A stretch of 51,618 nucleotides of DNA from Alphaproteobacteria bacterium (GCA_017392345.1 JAFOVN010000030.1:1-51618), one strand, 5' to 3'. Positions 1,381 to 39,905 are shown, counted from the first letter of the stretch. The notes: generated by a model not told the origin, from the sequence alone. Made by a program: numbers and translations.

Positions 1381-1447
1381 TTTTGCACAAAAACGCGGGG
1401 CACTTGCCCCGCGCACTAACCACTTACACTAACACTTACCACTATTC
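1381..1447 (-). terminator. Composite 3' module: stop codon, then a TAGTGG/TAAGTG/TTAGTG tract, then a GCGGGG-N6-CCCCGC hairpin, then a T-run
   Basis: Minus strand: GAA TAG TGGTAAGTGTTAGTGTAAGTGGTTAGTGCGCGGGGCAAGTGCCCCGCGTTTTTGTGCAAAA. The stop of the 1123-aa CDS is the first TAG of the tract. The module is nearly identical to 39850-39905. Confidence 0.7.
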
Positions 1448-4813: not shown

Positions 4814-4882
4814 TCTCTTTCCCCTTTTGGTATCAATTCATTATATCATAGAAAATAGGGAAAAAAAAGAAAAAAGTGGAGA

Positions 4883-4907
4883 GTGTAAGTGGTTAGTGTT
4901 AGTGTGG
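4883..4907 (+). repeat. TTAGTG-type hexamer/heptamer tract
   Basis: GTGTAAGTGGTTAGTGTTAGTGTGG, in the intergenic space between the giant CDS start and the rluD stop. Confidence 0.8.
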
Positions 4908-4913
4908 TATATC

Positions 4914-5033
4914 CCCCTTTCCCAAGGAAAGGGGTGCCGGGTAGCACCCGGCGGGGTATGGGTCATACTGACATCGTATCAATCCACCACTACCCCGGCG
5001 CCGTTCAGCGCCACCCCTTCGCCAGCGAAGGGG
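4914..5033. repeat. Cluster of four GC-rich hairpin modules
   Basis: The four hairpins are CCCCTTTCCCAAGGAAAGGGG, TGCCGGGTAGCACCCGGC, GGCGCCGTTCAGCGCC and CCCCTTCGCCAGCGAAGGGG. The segment CCACCACTACCCCGG is the inverse of GGTGGGGTAGTGGTG at 1268-1282. Confidence 0.75.
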
Positions 5034-5044
5034 ATTTCTGCAAC

Positions 5045-5995
5045 TTAAACTAACACTTCCCGCAATTCCAACATATCGTCCGGCAGGTTCGTTTTGAATT
5101 TCATTGGCACGCCCGTTACAGGATGTGCGAATTCCAAAATCTGGGCATGCAGCATTTGGCCATTGTGCGTTTTGATAAAATCCAATAAATCGGGGTTTTT
5201 AACCGACCCCAGGCGCGACGATGCACGACCGTATACACCATCGCACAAAACCGGAAAACCATGCGCCGACAAATGAACCCTTATTTGGTGTGTGCGCCCG
5301 GTCATCAGTGTGCAACGAAATTCCGAAACGCCGTCACGTGGCCACGCGTCCAGGACTTCGACAATTGTGTGCGCAGGTTTGCCACCACTTTTTACCATCG
5401 TCATCTTTTGCCGGTTGCGCGAAGACCGGGCGATATTGCCGGTTATGTCCGCGCCCGTCCAATTCGGGACGCCCCAAACGAACGCGATATATTTGCGGGT
5501 AAGGTTATGCGTGCTAAAAATTTTTACCAATTCGCGGTATGCCGCATCAGATTTTGCAAAAACAACAACGCCACTGGTATCTTTATCAAGTCGATGAACC
5601 ACGCCCGGGCGTGTCGGCCCGCCAAGCACCGAAAGGTGCGTATGCGACAAAATGTTTTGAACCAATGTTCCCGTCTTGTTGCCCGCCGATGGATACATAA
5701 CGACACCGCGCGGTTTGTTCACAACAATTATGTCATCGTCTTCGTATAAAATTTCCAGTTCAATTTCGTCCGATATGTTATCGGTTGCAACATCCGTTTG
5801 TACGGGCGGAATTTCGACAATGATTTTGTCGCCGGATTTTACTTTTTCGGAAAACTTTATATTTTTGCCATCGCGCGTGACGGCGAAACGCTGAATTTCA
5901 CTGCGCGAAAAAGTCGGCAATTGCGACACCAAAAATTTATCTAATCGCATGCCGACCGATTCGTCCGCAACAATAAATTCGCGCGTGTCTGTCAT
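5045..5995 (-). CDS. rluD: 23S rRNA pseudouridine synthase, RluD/RluA family
   Basis: S4-like N-terminus (RLDKFLVSQLPTFSRSEIQRF..) and the catalytic motif HRLDKDTSGVVVFAK. I chose the start at MTDTREF (5995) because the longer ORF overlaps the upstream gene. Confidence 0.85.
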   Translation of the reverse strand: MTDTREFIVADESVGMRLDKFLVSQLPTFSRSEIQRFAVTRDGKNIKFSEKVKSGDKIIVEIPPVQTDVATDNISDEIELEILYEDDDIIVVNKPRGVVMYPSAGNKTGTLVQNILSHTHLSVLGGPTRPGVVHRLDKDTSGVVVFAKSDAAYRELVKIFSTHNLTRKYIAFVWGVPNWTGADITGNIARSSRNRQKMTMVKSGGKPAHTIVEVLDAWPRDGVSEFRCTLMTGRTHQIRVHLSAHGFPVLCDGVYGRASSRLGSVKNPDLLDFIKTHNGQMLHAQILEFAHPVTGVPMKFKTNLPDDMLELREVLV

Positions 5996-11018: not shown

Positions 11019-11396
11019 ATGCAACCAAGAAAAAATCAAACGAATTCACGTGGGCAATCGTCCAACAATTCACGAAATCAATCGCCGGTTATTGCGATGA
11101 TTCAACGGTGTCACAAATGGCGCATGAAACGCAAACAGTATATGGACCAGGCGCGTCTTGCAACCGATGAAATCGAACGCGAACGGTTGTTGCAATCGGC
11201 GGAACATTACGGCCGTATTGTCAACGAAGAACAGGCCAAGATTGATTCTTCGCGTACACCGGGCGACAAAACACCGATTCCGGACGTTCCGGTGGCGGCT
11301 GAAAACGGAACACAATCCGACAATCCTGAAAATCCGGAAAACACCGATACGGACGAAGAACAGGTTTTTCCAACCTTTTTGACAAGTTTGAATTAG
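11019..11396 (+). CDS. DUF4167-like protein (conserved in alphaproteobacteria)
   Basis: Basic Asn/Ser/Gln/Arg-rich N-terminus, then ..YMDQARLATDEIERERLLQSAEHYGRIV.., then an acidic tail. This is the pattern I recall for DUF4167. Confidence 0.55.
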   Translation: MQPRKNQTNSRGQSSNNSRNQSPVIAMIQRCHKWRMKRKQYMDQARLATDEIERERLLQSAEHYGRIVNEEQAKIDSSRTPGDKTPIPDVPVAAENGTQSDNPENPENTDTDEEQVFPTFLTSLN

Positions 11397-11470
11397 TGGT
11401 TAGCGATAACAAAAACCGCCGAAATTCCGGCGGTTCACTAACACTTACACTAATACTAGCCACTAATCTA
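11393..11470. terminator. Symmetric convergent-gene terminator: TTAGTG tract, ACCGCCG-N6-CGGCGGT hairpin, then an inverted CACTAA tract
   Basis: Plus strand: AAT TAG TGGTTAGCGATAACAAAAACCGCCGAAATTCCGGCGGTTCACTAACACTTACACTAATACTAGCCACTAATCTA. The stop codons of both convergent genes (TAG at 11394-11396 and TAG on the minus strand at 11468-11470) are part of the tracts. Confidence 0.7.
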
Positions 11471-12121: not shown

Positions 12122-13465
12122 ATGGAAAAAGACATGAAAAAAATTGCCATCGCCGGACGGCCAAACACCGGCAAGTCAACTTTGTTTAACGCATTGACCG
12201 GAACGCGTGATGCGTTGGTGCATGACCGGCCGGGTGTCACACGCGACACGATTTGTGGGAAAATGCTTGGGCGCGACGATTGTATGCTGTGTGATACGGC
12301 GGGGCTTGAAAACGCGCGGGCGGGAATCGCCGCCGATTCAACGAATATGGCGATTGATGCGATATCGGGCGCGGATGCAATTTTGTTTGTGGTTGACGGG
12401 CGCACCGGGTTATTACCCGAAGATTTGAACTGGGCGCGTGCCGTTCGGCGAAAAACGCGGGCGCCGATATTACTGCTTATCAACAAAACTGAATCAGGGC
12501 GACGGATTGGTGATATTCATGAGTTTTATAAACTTGGGTTTGGGGAACCGGTTTTAATTTCGGCGGAACACAAGCGTGGATTCGATAAAATCTTTGAATT
12601 TATAAATCGTGTGGCACCAGCAGAAAATACCAACGATACACCGGCCGCGGATACGCGCGTTAAAATTGCAATCCTGGGTCAACCGAATGTTGGAAAATCG
12701 ACATTGGTAAATCGGGTGCTCGGCGAAAATCGCCAAATTGTAAAGGACGAACCCGGTGTTACACGCGACACGGTGAAAATTCCGGCGCGATTTTATGGAC
12801 GCGATATTTTATTGATGGATACGGCGGGACTTCGGCGAAAGTCCAATGTCCGCGATGACGTAGAAACTTTGTCGGCGTTAAAATCGCTGGACGCAATTGA
12901 AAAATCTGATGTTGTGATTTTGGTTGTTGACGCAACGCGCGACATTGAAAACCAGGCACTGGGGATTGCAGCGCGCGTTTATGACACGGGAAAAATTTTG
13001 TGTGTGGCGTTAAACAAGTGGGATTTGGTGCCGGTGGACGAACGCGATGAAAAACTGTTGAAACTTAAACACCATTTCACGAATTCTTTTCATCAGATTA
13101 TAAAACCGATGATGCTTGCCATTTCGGCGGAAAAGGGAACGGGTGTGCAAAATATGTTCAAACGAATTTATCAACAGTGGGACATTTCCACCGCGACCGC
13201 ACCAACAAGTTTGATAAATAAAATCATCGGTGAATTGGTTGAATCGCGCCAACCGCCGATGTCGCGCCTTAAACGCCCGATGAAGATAAAATTTGCATCA
13301 CAAACCGGCCGGCACCCGATGCGCATTACGATAAATGTTGGTGGTGCGTCCGATATTCCGGAATCATACACACGATACCTGCGCCGCGGAATTGCGAACG
13401 CATTGCACTGGGAACATTTGCCAATAATTATTGAATATAAAAAGGCAGATAATCCGTTTGATTAG
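12122..13465 (+). CDS. der: Ribosome-associated GTPase Der/EngA (two tandem GTPase domains plus a KH-like C-terminus)
   Basis: Two P-loops (GRPNTGKST and GQPNVGKST), DTAG repeated twice, and NKxD motifs (NKTE, NKWD). Confidence 0.9.
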   Translation: MEKDMKKIAIAGRPNTGKSTLFNALTGTRDALVHDRPGVTRDTICGKMLGRDDCMLCDTAGLENARAGIAADSTNMAIDAISGADAILFVVDGRTGLLPEDLNWARAVRRKTRAPILLLINKTESGRRIGDIHEFYKLGFGEPVLISAEHKRGFDKIFEFINRVAPAENTNDTPAADTRVKIAILGQPNVGKSTLVNRVLGENRQIVKDEPGVTRDTVKIPARFYGRDILLMDTAGLRRKSNVRDDVETLSALKSLDAIEKSDVVILVVDATRDIENQALGIAARVYDTGKILCVALNKWDLVPVDERDEKLLKLKHHFTNSFHQIIKPMMLAISAEKGTGVQNMFKRIYQQWDISTATAPTSLINKIIGELVESRQPPMSRLKRPMKIKFASQTGRHPMRITINVGGASDIPESYTRYLRRGIANALHWEHLPIIIEYKKADNPFD

Positions 13466-14022
13466 TGGGATGTTTTCTGTTTTATAAACGGAAAATGGGT
13501 GAACAGAGTTTGTTTTGCCAACATTGTTGCGTTTAGCGCATCCGTATATTTCCCGTGCAAAGAATGATATTCCACCAATGCCTTAAATCTTTCCTTTGGG
13601 CATTTGGAACAACAATTTTCATATATTGTGCCATCTTCACGATTGTGAATACACTTGATGATATCGTTTTCTTTGATTGGTTTATCACGTTCTTCTTTTA
13701 TAATTTCTGTGGCAATAATGGCCCCAATAATACTGTTTGGTTTTAAGTAAGGTGCAACAGACACCCGGCAAAAACACGACGGAGCACGTACAAGAGGCCC
13801 CTTTTCGTTCAAATATTCCGTAAGTGCCTTTACATTGTTGCCATTATAAACAGATTCCGCATAAATAATAAACGCCTTCACTTGATACATATAACCGTTA
13901 AGGTCCGAAAGACTTATTGGTTTAACCATATCCCTAAGTTGTGTTTCTAAATCAGTTTTCGCAGATTTTTCGGCTTCCTTCGCTTTGCGATAAATTTTAT
14001 AATCTTGAATTATAGTGCCCAT
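13462..14022 (-). CDS. Hypothetical protein (186 aa), AT-rich ORFan
   Basis: Intact ORF with no motif I recognise. It has clustered Cys (CFC, CCSKC). Its stop overlaps the der stop within TTAG. Confidence 0.45.
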   Translation of the reverse strand: MGTIIQDYKIYRKAKEAEKSAKTDLETQLRDMVKPISLSDLNGYMYQVKAFIIYAESVYNGNNVKALTEYLNEKGPLVRAPSCFCRVSVAPYLKPNSIIGAIIATEIIKEERDKPIKENDIIKCIHNREDGTIYENCCSKCPKERFKALVEYHSLHGKYTDALNATMLAKQTLFTHFPFIKQKTSH

Positions 14023-25137: not shown

Positions 25138-25166
25138 ATTGTGCAACACCGCGAATGCGGGCGGTT

Positions 25167-25192
25167 CACTAAACACTAACACTGACCACTAA
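25167..25192 (-). repeat. TTAGTG-type tract starting at the fabZ stop codon
   Basis: Minus strand: CAA ATT TAG TGGTCAGTGTTAGTGTTTAGTG. Confidence 0.8.
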
Positions 25193-25646: not shown

Positions 25647-26690
25647 TTAATCGTTTAAATGTTTTTTTACCCACGCATAGTGGCGCAAGAATTCCGTTCC
25701 CGGCATCGCCGGATAACCCATATGACGCCCACCGTCGGGAATATCGCGGAAAACGCCACTGTTCGCGCCAACTTCGGCATCATTGCCAATCTTGACCCCG
25801 TTTGCGATACCGACATGCCCCGCAAGCAACACACGGTCGCCAACTTTCACGCCGCCGGCGATTCCAACGCCGCCCGCCAAAAAGCATTCACGCCCAATTA
25901 CAACGCCGTGTGCAATTTGGCAAAGGTTATCTATTTTTGTTCCGTCGCCAATCATTGTATCAGTAAGCGCGCCGCGGTCGACACAGGAATTTGCACCGAT
26001 TGACACGCGGTCACCGATAACCACACGGCCGACATGCGGAATAAAGACATTATGCCCGTCTTGGCGGGTATAGCCGAACCCGTCCTTGCCAATTGATGCG
26101 CCGTTGTGGATTACGCAATCCGCGCCGATTGTCGCGTTTTCAATATGCGCACCCGAATGAATAACCGTGCCGCGCCCGATTGTCACATTGCGCCCGATAT
26201 AAACATTTGGATAAATTTTCACATCCGGTTCAATCACCGTGCCGCGTTCAATGGTTGCAAACTGTCCGACATAAACACTGCGCCGATTGCGAAAAAACAC
26301 GCCGCGTTCAATAACCGCATCAGACGACACACCGCGCCGCGGCGGTTCGCGATACACCACCCCAAGAATCTTTACGATTTCGCCGCGCGGATGAGCGCAT
26401 ACCAAAAGTGTCGCACCATGTGGCGCATGCGATGCCATTTCCGGTTGTAATAAAATCACACTTGCGCGCGTATTTTCCAACACGGATATAGGTAAAATTT
26501 TGAAAGCGTTGCTGTTTTGTTCGGTCGAATAGAACGCAATCTGACCCGCGCGCGCATCCGCAATTGGTGCAACACCAGATATGACGGCGTCGGGATTCCC
26601 GCGCAGTTCCAAATCAAACATTTTCGCCAATTCGCCGGCGGTTATTTTCGTCGCGCGTGGCCCAATCAAAGATTTAATTTTTTTCAACAT
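25647..26690 (-). CDS. lpxD: UDP-3-O-acylglucosamine N-acyltransferase LpxD
   Basis: Left-handed beta-helix hexapeptide repeats throughout, an LpxD-type N-terminal domain, and a position between skp and fabZ. Confidence 0.9.
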
Positions 26691-26730
26691 GCCCGCATTA
26701 TAATAAAAAAATTAAAAAAGAAAAGGGAAA

Positions 26731-26777
26731 TTAGTGGGTAGTGGGTAGTGTAAGTGTTAGTGGTTAGTGATTAGTGG
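26731..26777 (+). repeat. Longest TTAGTG-type tract (seven units)
   Basis: TTAGTGG GTAGTGG GTAGTG TAAGTG TTAGTGG TTAGTGA TTAGTGG read directly. Confidence 0.9.
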
Positions 26778-26785
26778 ACAATATG

Positions 26786-26811
26786 AAAAACCGGCGCAGA
26801 TGCGCCGGTTT
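26786..26811 (-). terminator. Intrinsic terminator of skp
   Basis: Minus strand: AAACCGGCGCATCTGCGCCGGTTTTTC, 23 nt after the skp stop. Confidence 0.75.
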
Positions 26812-26833
26812 CAACAATCCCTGAACATGGCCA

Positions 26834-27502
26834 TTAAAACCCTTTTGGGGTGTCCATTTTAACGGTCGAAACCTTTTTATCCAACGCATTGATAACATCC
26901 GCCGTAATATCAAGGTTTTCAACATTTGCACCCGTCCGCGCAAAACGACCATCAATCACCAAAGACAAATTCTTTTTCGCAATTATCGCTTCGATAATCG
27001 GGTCAAGGTGTTTTTCTTGGATTTCAACCAACGCCTTTTGGAACGCGGCATCAACCGATTGTGCGCGTTCGGTCAAATCACGTTGCAATTTTGTGACCTT
27101 GCCTTGGTATTCAACAACGCGACGTTGTAATGCTTCCTGGGAAAGGACGTCTTGGGATTTTTCGATTTCTTCTTTTTCTTTTTCTAATTCTTTCTGTTCT
27201 TTTTCAAGTTCACTACGCAATTTTTCTTCATACGATTCGCGTTGTTTACGCAGGTCTTGCAACGCCTTGGCATCCGCCTGAATCGCATCCATACGAATCA
27301 CCGCCATACGCAGGTCGCCACCGGATACGGCCTCACTCGATATACCATCAATCGCAGATTCCGCACTAACCGTTTTACCTGAAAAAGATTTTACCGCGAA
27401 CAATCCAATAACCGCAACCGCGATTACAATGACCGCCACGATACCAAATTTAACATATTTTTTTGTTGCCGATGCCCCGGCCTGGGTTCCTGTTTTATTC
27501 AT
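26834..27502 (-). CDS. skp: Periplasmic chaperone Skp/OmpH
   Basis: N-terminal anchor/signal and a long charged coiled-coil (LQDLRKQRESYEEKLRSELEKEQKELEKEKEE..). It lies upstream of lpxD. Confidence 0.75.
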   Translation of the reverse strand: MNKTGTQAGASATKKYVKFGIVAVIVIAVAVIGLFAVKSFSGKTVSAESAIDGISSEAVSGGDLRMAVIRMDAIQADAKALQDLRKQRESYEEKLRSELEKEQKELEKEKEEIEKSQDVLSQEALQRRVVEYQGKVTKLQRDLTERAQSVDAAFQKALVEIQEKHLDPIIEAIIAKKNLSLVIDGRFARTGANVENLDITADVINALDKKVSTVKMDTPKGF

Positions 27503-30307: not shown

Positions 30308-30464
30308 AGTGTTAGTGTTAGTGATTATCCGTCACCGCTGGGTGCGGTGCCGAGACTGCGCCAGGGCTTTGGCCCTGGCTTGGTGTAAGTAGGCTGCGAA
30401 TTGTCTTAATTTCGCCTTTCCGGCCCGTCTTCGTGCGCTTTGCGCACTCCGCCGCGGCACTAAC
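30308..30464. repeat. GC-rich hairpin element of about 157 bp, bounded by inverted TTAGTG/CACTAAC ends
   Basis: The left end is AGTGTTAGTGTTAGTGAT and the right end is GGCACTAAC. The interior carries hairpins such as CCAGGGCTTTGGCCCTGG and GTGCGCTTTGCGCAC. It has no ORF. Confidence 0.65.
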
Positions 30465-30509: not shown

Positions 30510-30586
30510 TGGTGGATGTTAAGGGACTCGAACCCCTGACCCTCTGCGTGTAAAGCAGATGCTCTAGCCAACTGAGCTAAACATCC
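30510..30586 (-). tRNA. tRNA-Val (anticodon UAC), CCA encoded
   Basis: The reverse complement is GGATGTTTAGCTCAGTTGGCTAGAGCATCTGCTTTACACGCAGAGGGTCAGGGGTTCGAGTCCCTTAACATCCACCA. It folds as a canonical cloverleaf, with anticodon loop TTTACAC. Confidence 0.9.
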
Positions 30587-39823: not shown

Positions 39824-39850
39824 AAAAACGCCCCAAACGGGGCGTTTTTT
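39824..39850 (+). terminator. pal intrinsic terminator
   Basis: AAAACGCCCCAAACGGGGCGTTTTTT. Confidence 0.85.
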
Positions 39851-39905
39851 AGTGATAGTGTTAGTGGTTAGTGTAAGTGCGCGGGGTATTCGCCCCGCAT
39901 TTTTG
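39850..39905 (+). repeat. TTAGTG tract plus GCGGGG-N6-CCCCGC hairpin module (second copy of the 1381-1447 module)
   Basis: TAGTGATAGTGTTAGTGGTTAGTGTAAGTGCGCGGGGTATTCGCCCCGCATTTTTG. Confidence 0.85.

Follow-up and report, generated by a model that had tools for sequence, protein, structure and literature searches.

We analyzed short tandem tracts of TTAGTG-type units in a 51,618-nucleotide contig (JAFOVN010000030.1, contig C18 of the assembly; hereafter, the window) from the alphaproteobacterial assembly GCA_017392345.1, which belongs to Candidatus Enterousia. The arrangement, distribution, and turnover of the tracts suggested that they are probably the tandem-repeat arms of lineage-restricted foldback elements that are built like the intervening sequences (IVS) of rRNA. 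Each arm would be an oriented array of three to seven units of 5 to 8 nt, and its G/T-rich, C-free strand would run 5' to 3' toward a palindromic core. The core would be an ordinary terminator hairpin, a larger composite palindrome resembling a repetitive extragenic palindrome (REP) or, in three related genomes, a PF05635 (S23p) gene. Arms would be single or would form inverted pairs, and paired arms would fold into one long stem. Comparisons of related genomes showed that arms have come and gone within a short evolutionary time and have grown or shrunk by whole units, and that they rewrote the last codons and the stop codons of abutting genes. Gene annotation is affected, as the stops and C-terminal residues of fabZ, der, and the gene upstream of lepA were rewritten by tracts.

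Dispersed stop-rich heptamer repeats (the STRR, TAACTGA, and Geobacter families) and rRNA IVS have each been unexplained for decades. The Enterousia clade, with genomes that are 83 to 99% identical, contains filled and empty sites, one-armed and two-armed copies, and copies with and without an open reading frame (ORF). Because all of these states coexist there, the origin of the elements and their possible role as RNase III or Rho substrates are testable in this clade. The elements are a variation on known kinds: analogues have been published, but we found no paper that linked dispersed gene-end tandem repeats to IVS or PF05635 cassettes.

TTAGTG-type tracts form a well-defined repeat family

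The assembly comprises 677 kb in 54 contigs, has a G+C content of 44%, and is about 76% complete; crude gene calls put the coding share of the genome at about 92%. The 23S rRNA gene is unassembled in this and in related tract-bearing metagenome-assembled genomes (MAGs), and the counts given here cover the assembled sequence. A scan with the Der GTPase yielded dozens of MAGs of Candidatus Enterousia or uncultured Alphaproteobacteria, with protein identities of up to 99%, from goat, yak, buffalo, deer, and other gut sources. Enterousia has been placed in the reduced-genome order Rs-D84 (PMC12306168).

An initial annotation of the window had listed arrays of TTAGTG-type units at many intergenic sites and had called for a genome-wide census. 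All of the listed arrays were present. For the census, the genome was searched with a regular expression, and the counts were compared with those from genomes simulated with an order-3 Markov model. Tracts of at least two units occurred 72 times, compared with 2 to 5 times (about 3) in the simulations, and nearly all were intergenic. Tracts of at least three units numbered 40 genome-wide, and the longest had seven units; these 40 tracts are the set to which the fractions below refer. The density was about one tract per 9 kb. The hexamers GTTAGT, TTAGTG, and TGTTAG were the top intergenic-enriched hexamers of the genome (8- to 12-fold), level with the Shine-Dalgarno hexamer AAGGAG.

The units were mostly 7 nt long (62 units), followed by 6 nt (27), 5 nt (25), and 8 nt (16), and an arm typically had three to five of them. 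The consensus order within an arm was TAGTGG-TTAGTG-TAAGTG(G)-TTAGTG, with TAGTGG as the usual start and TTAGTG or TTAGTA as the usual end. The outer end read TAGTGGTTAGTG and the inner end read GTTAGTG, and this ordered consensus and a single unit family were common to about 70 loci. The C content of the arms was 0.5%. In coding DNA, single TTAGTG or CACTAA units numbered 217, compared with about 365 expected from base composition. Dispersed short tandem repeats of the STRR and TAACTGA type are defined by 6- to 8-nt tandem units, with few copies per set, at many intergenic sites and far above chance, and the tracts fit this description. These results indicated that the TTAGTG tracts are a real, non-random, and well-defined repeat family.

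Tract orientation showed no relation to GC skew or replication. The absence of spacers and the unit lengths of 5 to 8 nt ruled out a CRISPR array. The initial annotation had recognized no described repeat family, and an Rfam search of the window at the gathering threshold agreed with it: the matches were a 16S rRNA fragment and one tRNA, with none at any tract. Closely analogous repeat classes have been published, though, and they are compared below. The 16S rRNA match was the 5' part of a minus-strand gene (positions 1 to 709) that is truncated at the contig end.

Tracts point toward hairpins, and some have a second, inverted arm

A GC-rich hairpin was located no more than 45 nt downstream (in the TTAGTG direction) of 24 of the 40 tracts and upstream of only 3, and the hairpin stem often began 0 to 3 nt past the tract. 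The median folding energy of the 70 nt downstream was -19.4 kcal/mol, compared with -10.7 kcal/mol upstream (p = 3e-4) and -12.0 kcal/mol in random windows. Most of the tracts that lacked a simple downstream hairpin ran into larger composite palindromic repeats. The unifying rule is one of polarity: the G/T-rich strand runs toward a hairpin or a palindrome. The initial annotation had described the tracts as almost always adjacent to a GC-rich hairpin, either before it or right after its T-run. Adjacency on the downstream side was observed in the 24 tracts noted above. In the case of the tract at 39850, which had been placed right after a T-run, a second hairpin is located directly downstream, so this tract still fits the order of tract and then hairpin.

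An inverted CACTAA arm was found beyond the core in 11 of the 40 tracts, and the other 29 were single-armed. The paired arms matched almost fully (for example, at 25 of 25 and 16 of 16 positions), and their predicted stems had energies of -25 to -77 kcal/mol. Examples of two-armed elements are located at 5898 to 5982 in contig C36 of G000 and at 1745 to 1843 in L022. The polarity, the inverted arms, and the near-complete pairing together give the family the architecture (TTAGTG)n-core-(CACTAA)n, in which one of the arms may be missing. In IVS, a core is enclosed by terminal inverted repeats whose pairing makes a long stem, and this design was found in 11 of the 40 copies.

A second repeat family was often enclosed by the arms. 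It consisted of composite multi-hairpin repeats (ctggaat...attccag, ttcccctc...gaggggtgccgg, ccgtcaccgc...), with examples in the window at 4908 to 5040 and 30326 to 30457.

Arms bracket an IVS protein gene upstream of lepA

The link to IVS came from the region just upstream of lepA. In three genomes (G006, G052, and G056), (TTAGTG)5-7 and (CACTAA)5 bracketed a PF05635 gene, which codes for the 23S rRNA intervening-sequence protein (S23p). The CACTAA arm encoded the C-terminal 8 to 10 residues of this protein (for example, NTLTLTTSTSH*), and the last TAA of the arm served as its stop codon (loci L110 to L112 of G056, G052, and G006). The same junction was empty in six close relatives, in which the TGA of the upstream gene overlapped the lepA ATG, and it held a tract and a GC hairpin with no ORF in G048. 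At the filled sites, the C terminus of the upstream gene was changed from ERVSEEK* to GSVSVSG*.

Arms of this kind were also found around PF05635 genes elsewhere. PF05635 was present in 52 of 301 genomes sampled across Pseudomonadota. The flanks were scored by counting tandem units, with control windows; this score replaced one based on 6-mer sharing, which was too noisy in GC-rich genomes. At least three tandem period-7 units were present on both flanks at 18 of 26 analysable PF05635 loci, compared with 6 of 93 control windows. The flanking arms were inverted, and their units were lineage specific (GGCTTAA, GTGAGTA, GTGATTA, GTGAGAT, TGGTCAG, and others).

In Coxiella, the IVS has a 28-bp terminal inverted-repeat stem and tandem GACAGAT heptamers whose number varies by strain, RNase III cleaves it at the first heptamer, and the PF05635 protein is a pentameric ring; the authors of that study described the origin of IVS as unknown (PMC4990558). 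The TTAGTG elements resemble the 23S rRNA IVS with S23p (Coxiella burnetii and Leptospira; PMC4990558) in having terminal inverted repeats, a long stem, a variable core, and a 5' arm of tandem heptamer-scale units with a copy number that differs between strains. The PF05635 core is shared as well, as it was seen with TTAGTG and CACTAA arms in the three Enterousia genomes. The differences are also clear. None of the tracts was in helix 25 or 45 of 23S rRNA; all were between protein-coding or tRNA genes in these assemblies, in which 23S rRNA is unassembled. The cores were mostly ORF-less terminator hairpins or REP-like palindromes, most copies had one arm, and the arms were stop-rich and captured the stops of neighboring genes. 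RNase III processing has been reported for the Coxiella IVS. An RNase III gene is present in the genome studied here, and by analogy with IVS, a pair of transcribed arms would fold into a double-stranded stem that could be an RNase III substrate.

A broader idea, which we consider doubtful, is that arm-core-arm cassettes with inverted, lineage-specific heptamer arms represent a widespread and unrecognized class of mobile elements, with the 23S rRNA IVS as its best-known members. The ring-shaped PF05635 protein would be the elements' own factor, with about one unit per subunit, and the Enterousia tracts would be ORF-less derivatives that home to gene-end hairpins. The arms would double as a gene boundary in both directions, with stops in every frame ahead of the core and a G-free tract for Rho loading behind it, which would make insertion between closely packed genes harmless.

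Tracts are gained, lost, and resized among close relatives

Tracts were carried by 7 of 25 congeneric species and by 0 of 16 genomes that represent other families in the order, and a control search with the reversed pattern gave zero hits. The pattern hit 48 times in the genome studied here, 78 times in G006, and few times in the remaining carriers. The other 18 congeners had the same genes and terminators but no tracts, and no other recurrent unit "dialects" were found in about 540 kb of loci from tract-free Enterousia. In an LpxD tree, the carriers fell into two separate clusters with tract-free species between them.

A comparison of orthologous loci, which the initial annotation had recommended, revealed gains, losses, unit-by-unit length changes, and remodelled C termini among genomes that were 83 to 99% identical. 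The patchy distribution (7 of 25 congeners) and the changes in unit steps (0 to 7 units at orthologous sites) are those of a dispersed repeat that undergoes rapid gain, loss, and slippage. Because tracts were gained, lost, and resized among near relatives, an essential locus-specific function was argued against.

The seven-unit tract between skp and lpxD illustrates an insertion. This tract is located at 26731 to 26777 on the plus strand and consists of the units TTAGTGG, GTAGTGG, GTAGTG, TAAGTG, TTAGTGG, TTAGTGA, and TTAGTGG (period 7 and 7.0 copies according to Tandem Repeats Finder). It points toward the intrinsic terminator hairpin of skp (26786 to 26811, minus strand), which has a CCGGCGC/GCGCCGG stem, a loop of 4, and a U-run on the minus strand. 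The predicted fold of this core had a dG of -27.5 kcal/mol (z = -3.8), and orthologues of the terminator were present in relatives. The flanking genes are skp (OmpH family; 26834 to 27502, minus strand; Pfam PF03938, E = 1.6e-16) and lpxD (25647 to 26690, minus strand; NCBIfam lpxD, E = 6e-98), and the TATAAT box of the lpxD promoter (26697 to 26702, minus strand) is directly downstream of the tract. In 20 congeners, the region consisted of the terminator, about 35 nt, TATAAT, N6, and ATG; relative to this arrangement, the tract was a clean 47-nt insertion that separates the terminator from the promoter.

In the ten nearest genomes (83 to 95% DNA identity), this site held 0 to 7 units, with a tract kept in nine of the ten, and a right arm was present in three of them. 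A composite multi-hairpin repeat of about 60 nt was found inside the tract in G050 and G052 (loci L100 and L105). This tract is not tied to a stop codon and is one of those without an upstream gene on the same strand: it follows the skp terminator, is 41 nt upstream of the lpxD start, and has the CACTAA orientation relative to both genes. According to fold predictions, the minus-strand RNA would form a strong terminator hairpin and then continue as a G-free (CACUAA)n stretch that lacks structure. The longest one-base-free run of the genome, positions 26697 to 26778 (82 nt, G-free on the minus strand), holds this tract; the three longest such runs of the genome all hold tracts, and the median run around tracts was 42 nt.

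The TATAAT box is exactly 6 nt ahead of the lpxD ATG (window positions 26691 to 26702; loci L001 to L018), and the TATAAT-N6-ATG arrangement was kept in most of the 20 congeners. The lpxD mRNA thus appears to be leaderless or nearly so, judging by this spacing.

Many tracts supply or abut stop codons

The association of tracts with stop codons that the initial annotation reported was borne out genome-wide. A same-strand stop codon was located within -7 to +10 nt of the tract start in 17 of the 40 tracts, compared with 2.0 expected, and none of 2,000 randomisations reached this count. In ten genes, the first TAG or TAA of the tract was the stop codon of the gene. The association has limits, as 14 of the 40 tracts (about one third) had no same-strand gene upstream, and about 8 were located in divergent promoter regions, where no protein-coding gene ends close by. 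Similarly, the proposal that a tract read in the sense orientation supplies a stop in each of the three frames was accurate for 30 of the 40 tracts (1.4 of 40 would be expected for random intergenic DNA), but not for the rest; in the antisense orientation, only 8 of 40 had such stops.

Stop codons within tracts had been proposed for six genes in the window. For the Cys-rich gene, the DUF4167-like gene, der, and fabZ, the stop was indeed the TAG of a tract unit. In the case of rluD, the two tract-like units at 5048 to 5058 are in-frame codons (E-V-L-V) ahead of a TAA stop, and the stop TAG of the Yip1-like gene is 2 nt ahead of the canonical tract.

The der and fabZ genes showed how arms rewrite gene ends. 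The ancestral der end was ...PFD followed by TAA or TGA, and distant relatives had a plain TAA or TGA. Here, a single TTAGTGG unit (13462 to 13468, plus strand) supplies the der stop (TAG), and near relatives had 3 to 5 units at this position, some of which extended into the coding sequence (...PFSD*). In all congeners with a readable fabZ end, this end was a TAA followed by a terminator, with no tract at the stop. Here, the fabZ arm (25167 to 25192, minus strand) separates the coding end from the hairpin: the stop TAG (25189 to 25191) is the first unit, three or four more units follow, and then a weak hairpin (25147 to 25166). In two other species, tracts were present at the fabZ end in different positions or orientations.

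If the elements are foldback arms as proposed, the association with stop codons may be mostly a filter effect. Arms read toward the core contain stops in all three frames, so an arm could persist only at sites where translation is meant to stop. In a genome with 92% coding sequence, deletion pressure would then trim the spacer until the first TAG of the arm serves as the stop codon. In RNA, a 5' arm would end translation in any frame ahead of the hairpin. At any single locus, the arms would be selfish or nearly neutral.

Targeting of start codons, as reported for TAACTGA repeats in 'Maribeggiatoa', was not observed for the TTAGTG tracts, of which 17 of 40 began at stop codons and which were oriented toward hairpins. 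One five-unit tract in contig C6 of G000 (1730 to 1760) had no hairpin and ran from a stop codon directly to the AAGGAG-N7-ATG of the next gene, and it resembles the start-codon-proximal TAACTGA repeats of Beggiatoaceae.

Comparison with other dispersed repeats

The intergenic TAACTGA heptamers, which are direct repeats found in marine Beggiatoaceae, Cyanobacteria, and Bacteroidetes, are close published analogues (MacGregor 2015, PMC4679880). Both families occur as many dispersed sets of tandem units (2 to 6 units of 7 nt for TAACTGA), nearly all of them intergenic, and both have a patchy phyletic spread and unit-sized strain differences (7-nt indels for TAACTGA). In both, one orientation contains stops in all three frames, which allows a set to overlap an ORF only at its end. 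In contrast to the TTAGTG tracts, TAACTGA sets mostly point toward start codons and end just ahead of them, inverted pairs are nearly absent, no association with hairpins has been reported, and the unit sequence is different.

The paired tandem-repeat families of Geobacter metallireducens, which have been read as regulator binding sites (Aklujkar 2009, PMC2700814), are similar in that 3 to 5 tandem units of 7 to 9 nt occur at tens of sites, mostly as opposite-strand pairs with variable spacing. They differ in that no link to stop codons or terminators has been described. The TTAGTG elements also share features with the REP, BIME, and REPIN sequences that accompany RAYT transposases. These are short palindromic repeats located between genes, at gene ends and frequently beside terminators, and they are polymorphic between strains. 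REPs have a conserved imperfect palindrome, a 5' GTAG tag, and a co-occurring Y1 (RAYT) transposase, whereas in TTAGTG elements the tandem arm is conserved, the palindrome is variable, and Y1 is absent from 13 of 13 tract-bearing genomes. Membership in the REP/REPIN group with RAYT was rejected because of this absence of Y1 (PF01797).

Cyanobacterial STRR heptamers (Mazel 1990) are reportedly dispersed, intergenic heptamer arrays restricted to a lineage; they are longer than TTAGTG tracts and are not known to be defined by a hairpin core.

Classification as miniature inverted-repeat transposable elements (MITEs) was also rejected, as no target-site duplication was seen at the lpxD-upstream and lepA junctions. 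A viral vehicle was rejected after no exact arm matches were found in viral contigs.

Alternative explanations

Several results weighed against the foldback explanation. With 29 of 40 copies one-armed, a foldback or IVS structure is not literal for most copies. No signature of mobility was found: filled and empty lpxD-upstream and lepA sites showed no target-site duplication, about 20 nt of the empty site being replaced instead, and the Y1 transposase (PF01797, RAYT/IS200-type) was absent from all 13 tract-bearing genomes, with positive controls. PF05635 was not found in this 76%-complete assembly, which lacks the lepA locus, or in 9 of the 12 other tract-bearing genomes; its absence from 10 of 13 ruled it out as an obligatory partner of the tracts. 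Templated mirror copying of one arm across the hairpin was unsupported, as the mirror likeness of the two arms at one locus (0.755) was not above that of arms at different loci (0.772; p = 0.73, n = 11). In addition, the unit kept one sequence at about 70 loci and in two clades with a protein identity of only about 77%, and the skp-lpxD site kept its tract in 9 of 10 near relatives. Pure neutrality leaves this uniformity and retention unexplained, and the two suggest ongoing copying or a sequence-specific constraint.

The initial annotation had proposed that the tracts could be a repeat element with a preference for TAG or TTAG at gene ends. Of the roles suggested there, this one came closest to the results. 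A dispersed family that is gained and lost was found, but what it preferred was a position beside a hairpin or palindrome, in one fixed polarity, and not TAG or TTAG as such. The gene-end location follows because terminator hairpins are located there and because a stop-rich arm survives only where translation ends.

A different possibility is that the host has selected the tracts as a gene-end module, in which the UUAGUG arm would be a three-frame stop buffer before the terminator and the CACUAA arm a G-free, C-rich loading site for Rho, so that the two would provide a two-way fail-safe boundary between packed genes. We consider this unlikely. The module would account for the excess of three-frame sense stops (30 of 40 tracts vs. 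1.4 of 40) and of abutting stop codons (17 of 40 vs. 2), for the strict order of RNA that is always UUAGUG-type ahead of the hairpin and always CACUAA-type past it, and for the skp-lpxD tract, which is part of the genome's longest G-free run (82 nt; the top three such runs hold tracts) and is retained in 9 of 10 near relatives. Rho is encoded in this genome. However, Rho is equally present in tract-free species, and the 18 of 25 congeners with the same genes and terminators lack tracts. Tracts were gained, lost, and resized among near-identical genomes, about 8 were at divergent promoters without a nearby protein-coding gene end, the arrays exceed the length that a stop buffer needs, and the median one-base-free run of 42 nt is short for a Rho utilization (rut) site of about 60 to 80 nt. 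A selected three-frame stop buffer, which was among the roles suggested by the initial annotation, was thus poorly supported, given the third of tracts without a sense upstream gene, the 18 tract-free congeners, and the fast turnover. It is a speculation that the arms of foldback elements act as back-up Rho sites, the RNA past the core always being G-free CACUAA.

The tracts could also be arrays of binding sites for a sequence-specific DNA- or RNA-binding protein. Such a protein might regulate the nucleoid or act as a global regulator, or it might be an RNA-binding ring in which each subunit contacts one unit. A 3'-UTR array for protein binding or RNA stability, which the initial annotation had suggested, is likewise a rival possibility. 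The uniform unit sequence and arm order at about 70 loci in two clades are consistent with this idea, as are the typical arm of 3 to 5 units, the similar readings of published analogues (PMC2700814; PMC4679880), and the bracketing of PF05635, a pentameric ring (PMC4990558), by arms in three genomes. Nevertheless, we regard binding arrays as improbable. No candidate protein matched the phyletic pattern of the tracts (PF05635 is missing from 10 of 13 carriers), the copy number is unconstrained (1 to 7), the position relative to promoters and genes is not fixed, and tracts are missing in most congeners.

It is very unlikely that the tracts arose independently in place as microsatellites, by slippage from a stop-codon seed and without dispersal between loci. 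Length differences in whole units, such as one unit at der here and 3 to 5 in relatives, are expected from slippage. Independent growth predicts locus-specific units, however, and about 70 loci share one unit family and an ordered consensus; many tracts are also away from stop codons, and whole arm-core-arm modules were found at previously empty junctions.

DNA uptake sequences (DUS) and uptake signal sequences (USS) in Neisseria and Haemophilus often form terminator inverted repeats, and a motif of this kind spread by biased transformation would fit the lineage-specific excess, the inverted pairs around terminators, and the patchy presence in two clades of co-resident gut species, but this idea is hardly credible because single units were not in excess in coding DNA (217 vs. 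about 365 expected), as they are for DUS and USS, the density of about one tract per 9 kb is far below theirs, and known uptake sequences do not occur as tandem arrays.

Other tract loci in the window

The arm of the Cys-rich gene (1414 to 1444, minus strand) consists of five units that begin with the TAG stop of this 1,123-amino-acid gene, and a hairpin (1394 to 1413) and a T-run directly follow. The rluD-side arm (4874 to 4907, plus strand) has the degenerate lead AAGTGGAGAGTG and is located 72 nt upstream of the Cys-rich gene start. It runs into a composite multi-hairpin repeat (about 4908 to 5040) that ends at the rluD stop.

The DUF4167-like gene and the 197-amino-acid Yip1-like gene are convergent and share a terminator hairpin (11411 to 11435) with an arm on each side. 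The left arm (11393 to 11403, plus strand) has 1.5 units, and the DUF4167-like gene ends at its first TAG; this arm has 2 to 5 units in L022 to L025 and L086. The right arm (11436 to 11470, minus strand) has five units, starts 2 nt past the TAG stop of the Yip1-like gene, and pairs with the left arm. Across the whole site (11393 to 11470), arm length varied from 0 to 6 units among relatives. The orientation of the hairpin and its T-run was flipped here and in L021 relative to L022 to L025 (about 1776 to 1810 in L021 to L025). It looks as if an inversion between the arms switches which of the convergent genes receives the T-run.

The der gene (plus strand) and a 186-amino-acid gene (13462 to 14022, minus strand) are also convergent, and their stop codons overlap inside one TTAGTGG unit. 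At the fabZ end, the terminator hairpin aaatcccccgattgggggaattttt was present twice in L014 (G016), flanking an inserted palindromic repeat and an inverted tract; the doubled hairpin may represent a duplication of the target hairpin upon insertion.

Several tracts in contigs C3, C10, C41, C50, and C53 of G000 were within about 2 kb of contig ends, and the distance was 67 to 277 nt in C3, C10, and C53. Breaks in short-read assemblies may be due in part to the tracts and their composite cores.

The dnaX arm (30308 to 30325, plus strand) has three units, is next to the dnaX start, and enters a composite repeat (30326 to 30457). A single inverted unit (30458 to 30464) follows a minus-strand tRNA gene (30513 to 30586), 49 nt beyond its 3' end. 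The pal arm (39850 to 39879, plus strand) has five units and is located downstream of pal, between terminator hairpins at 39824 to 39849 and 39881 to 39898.

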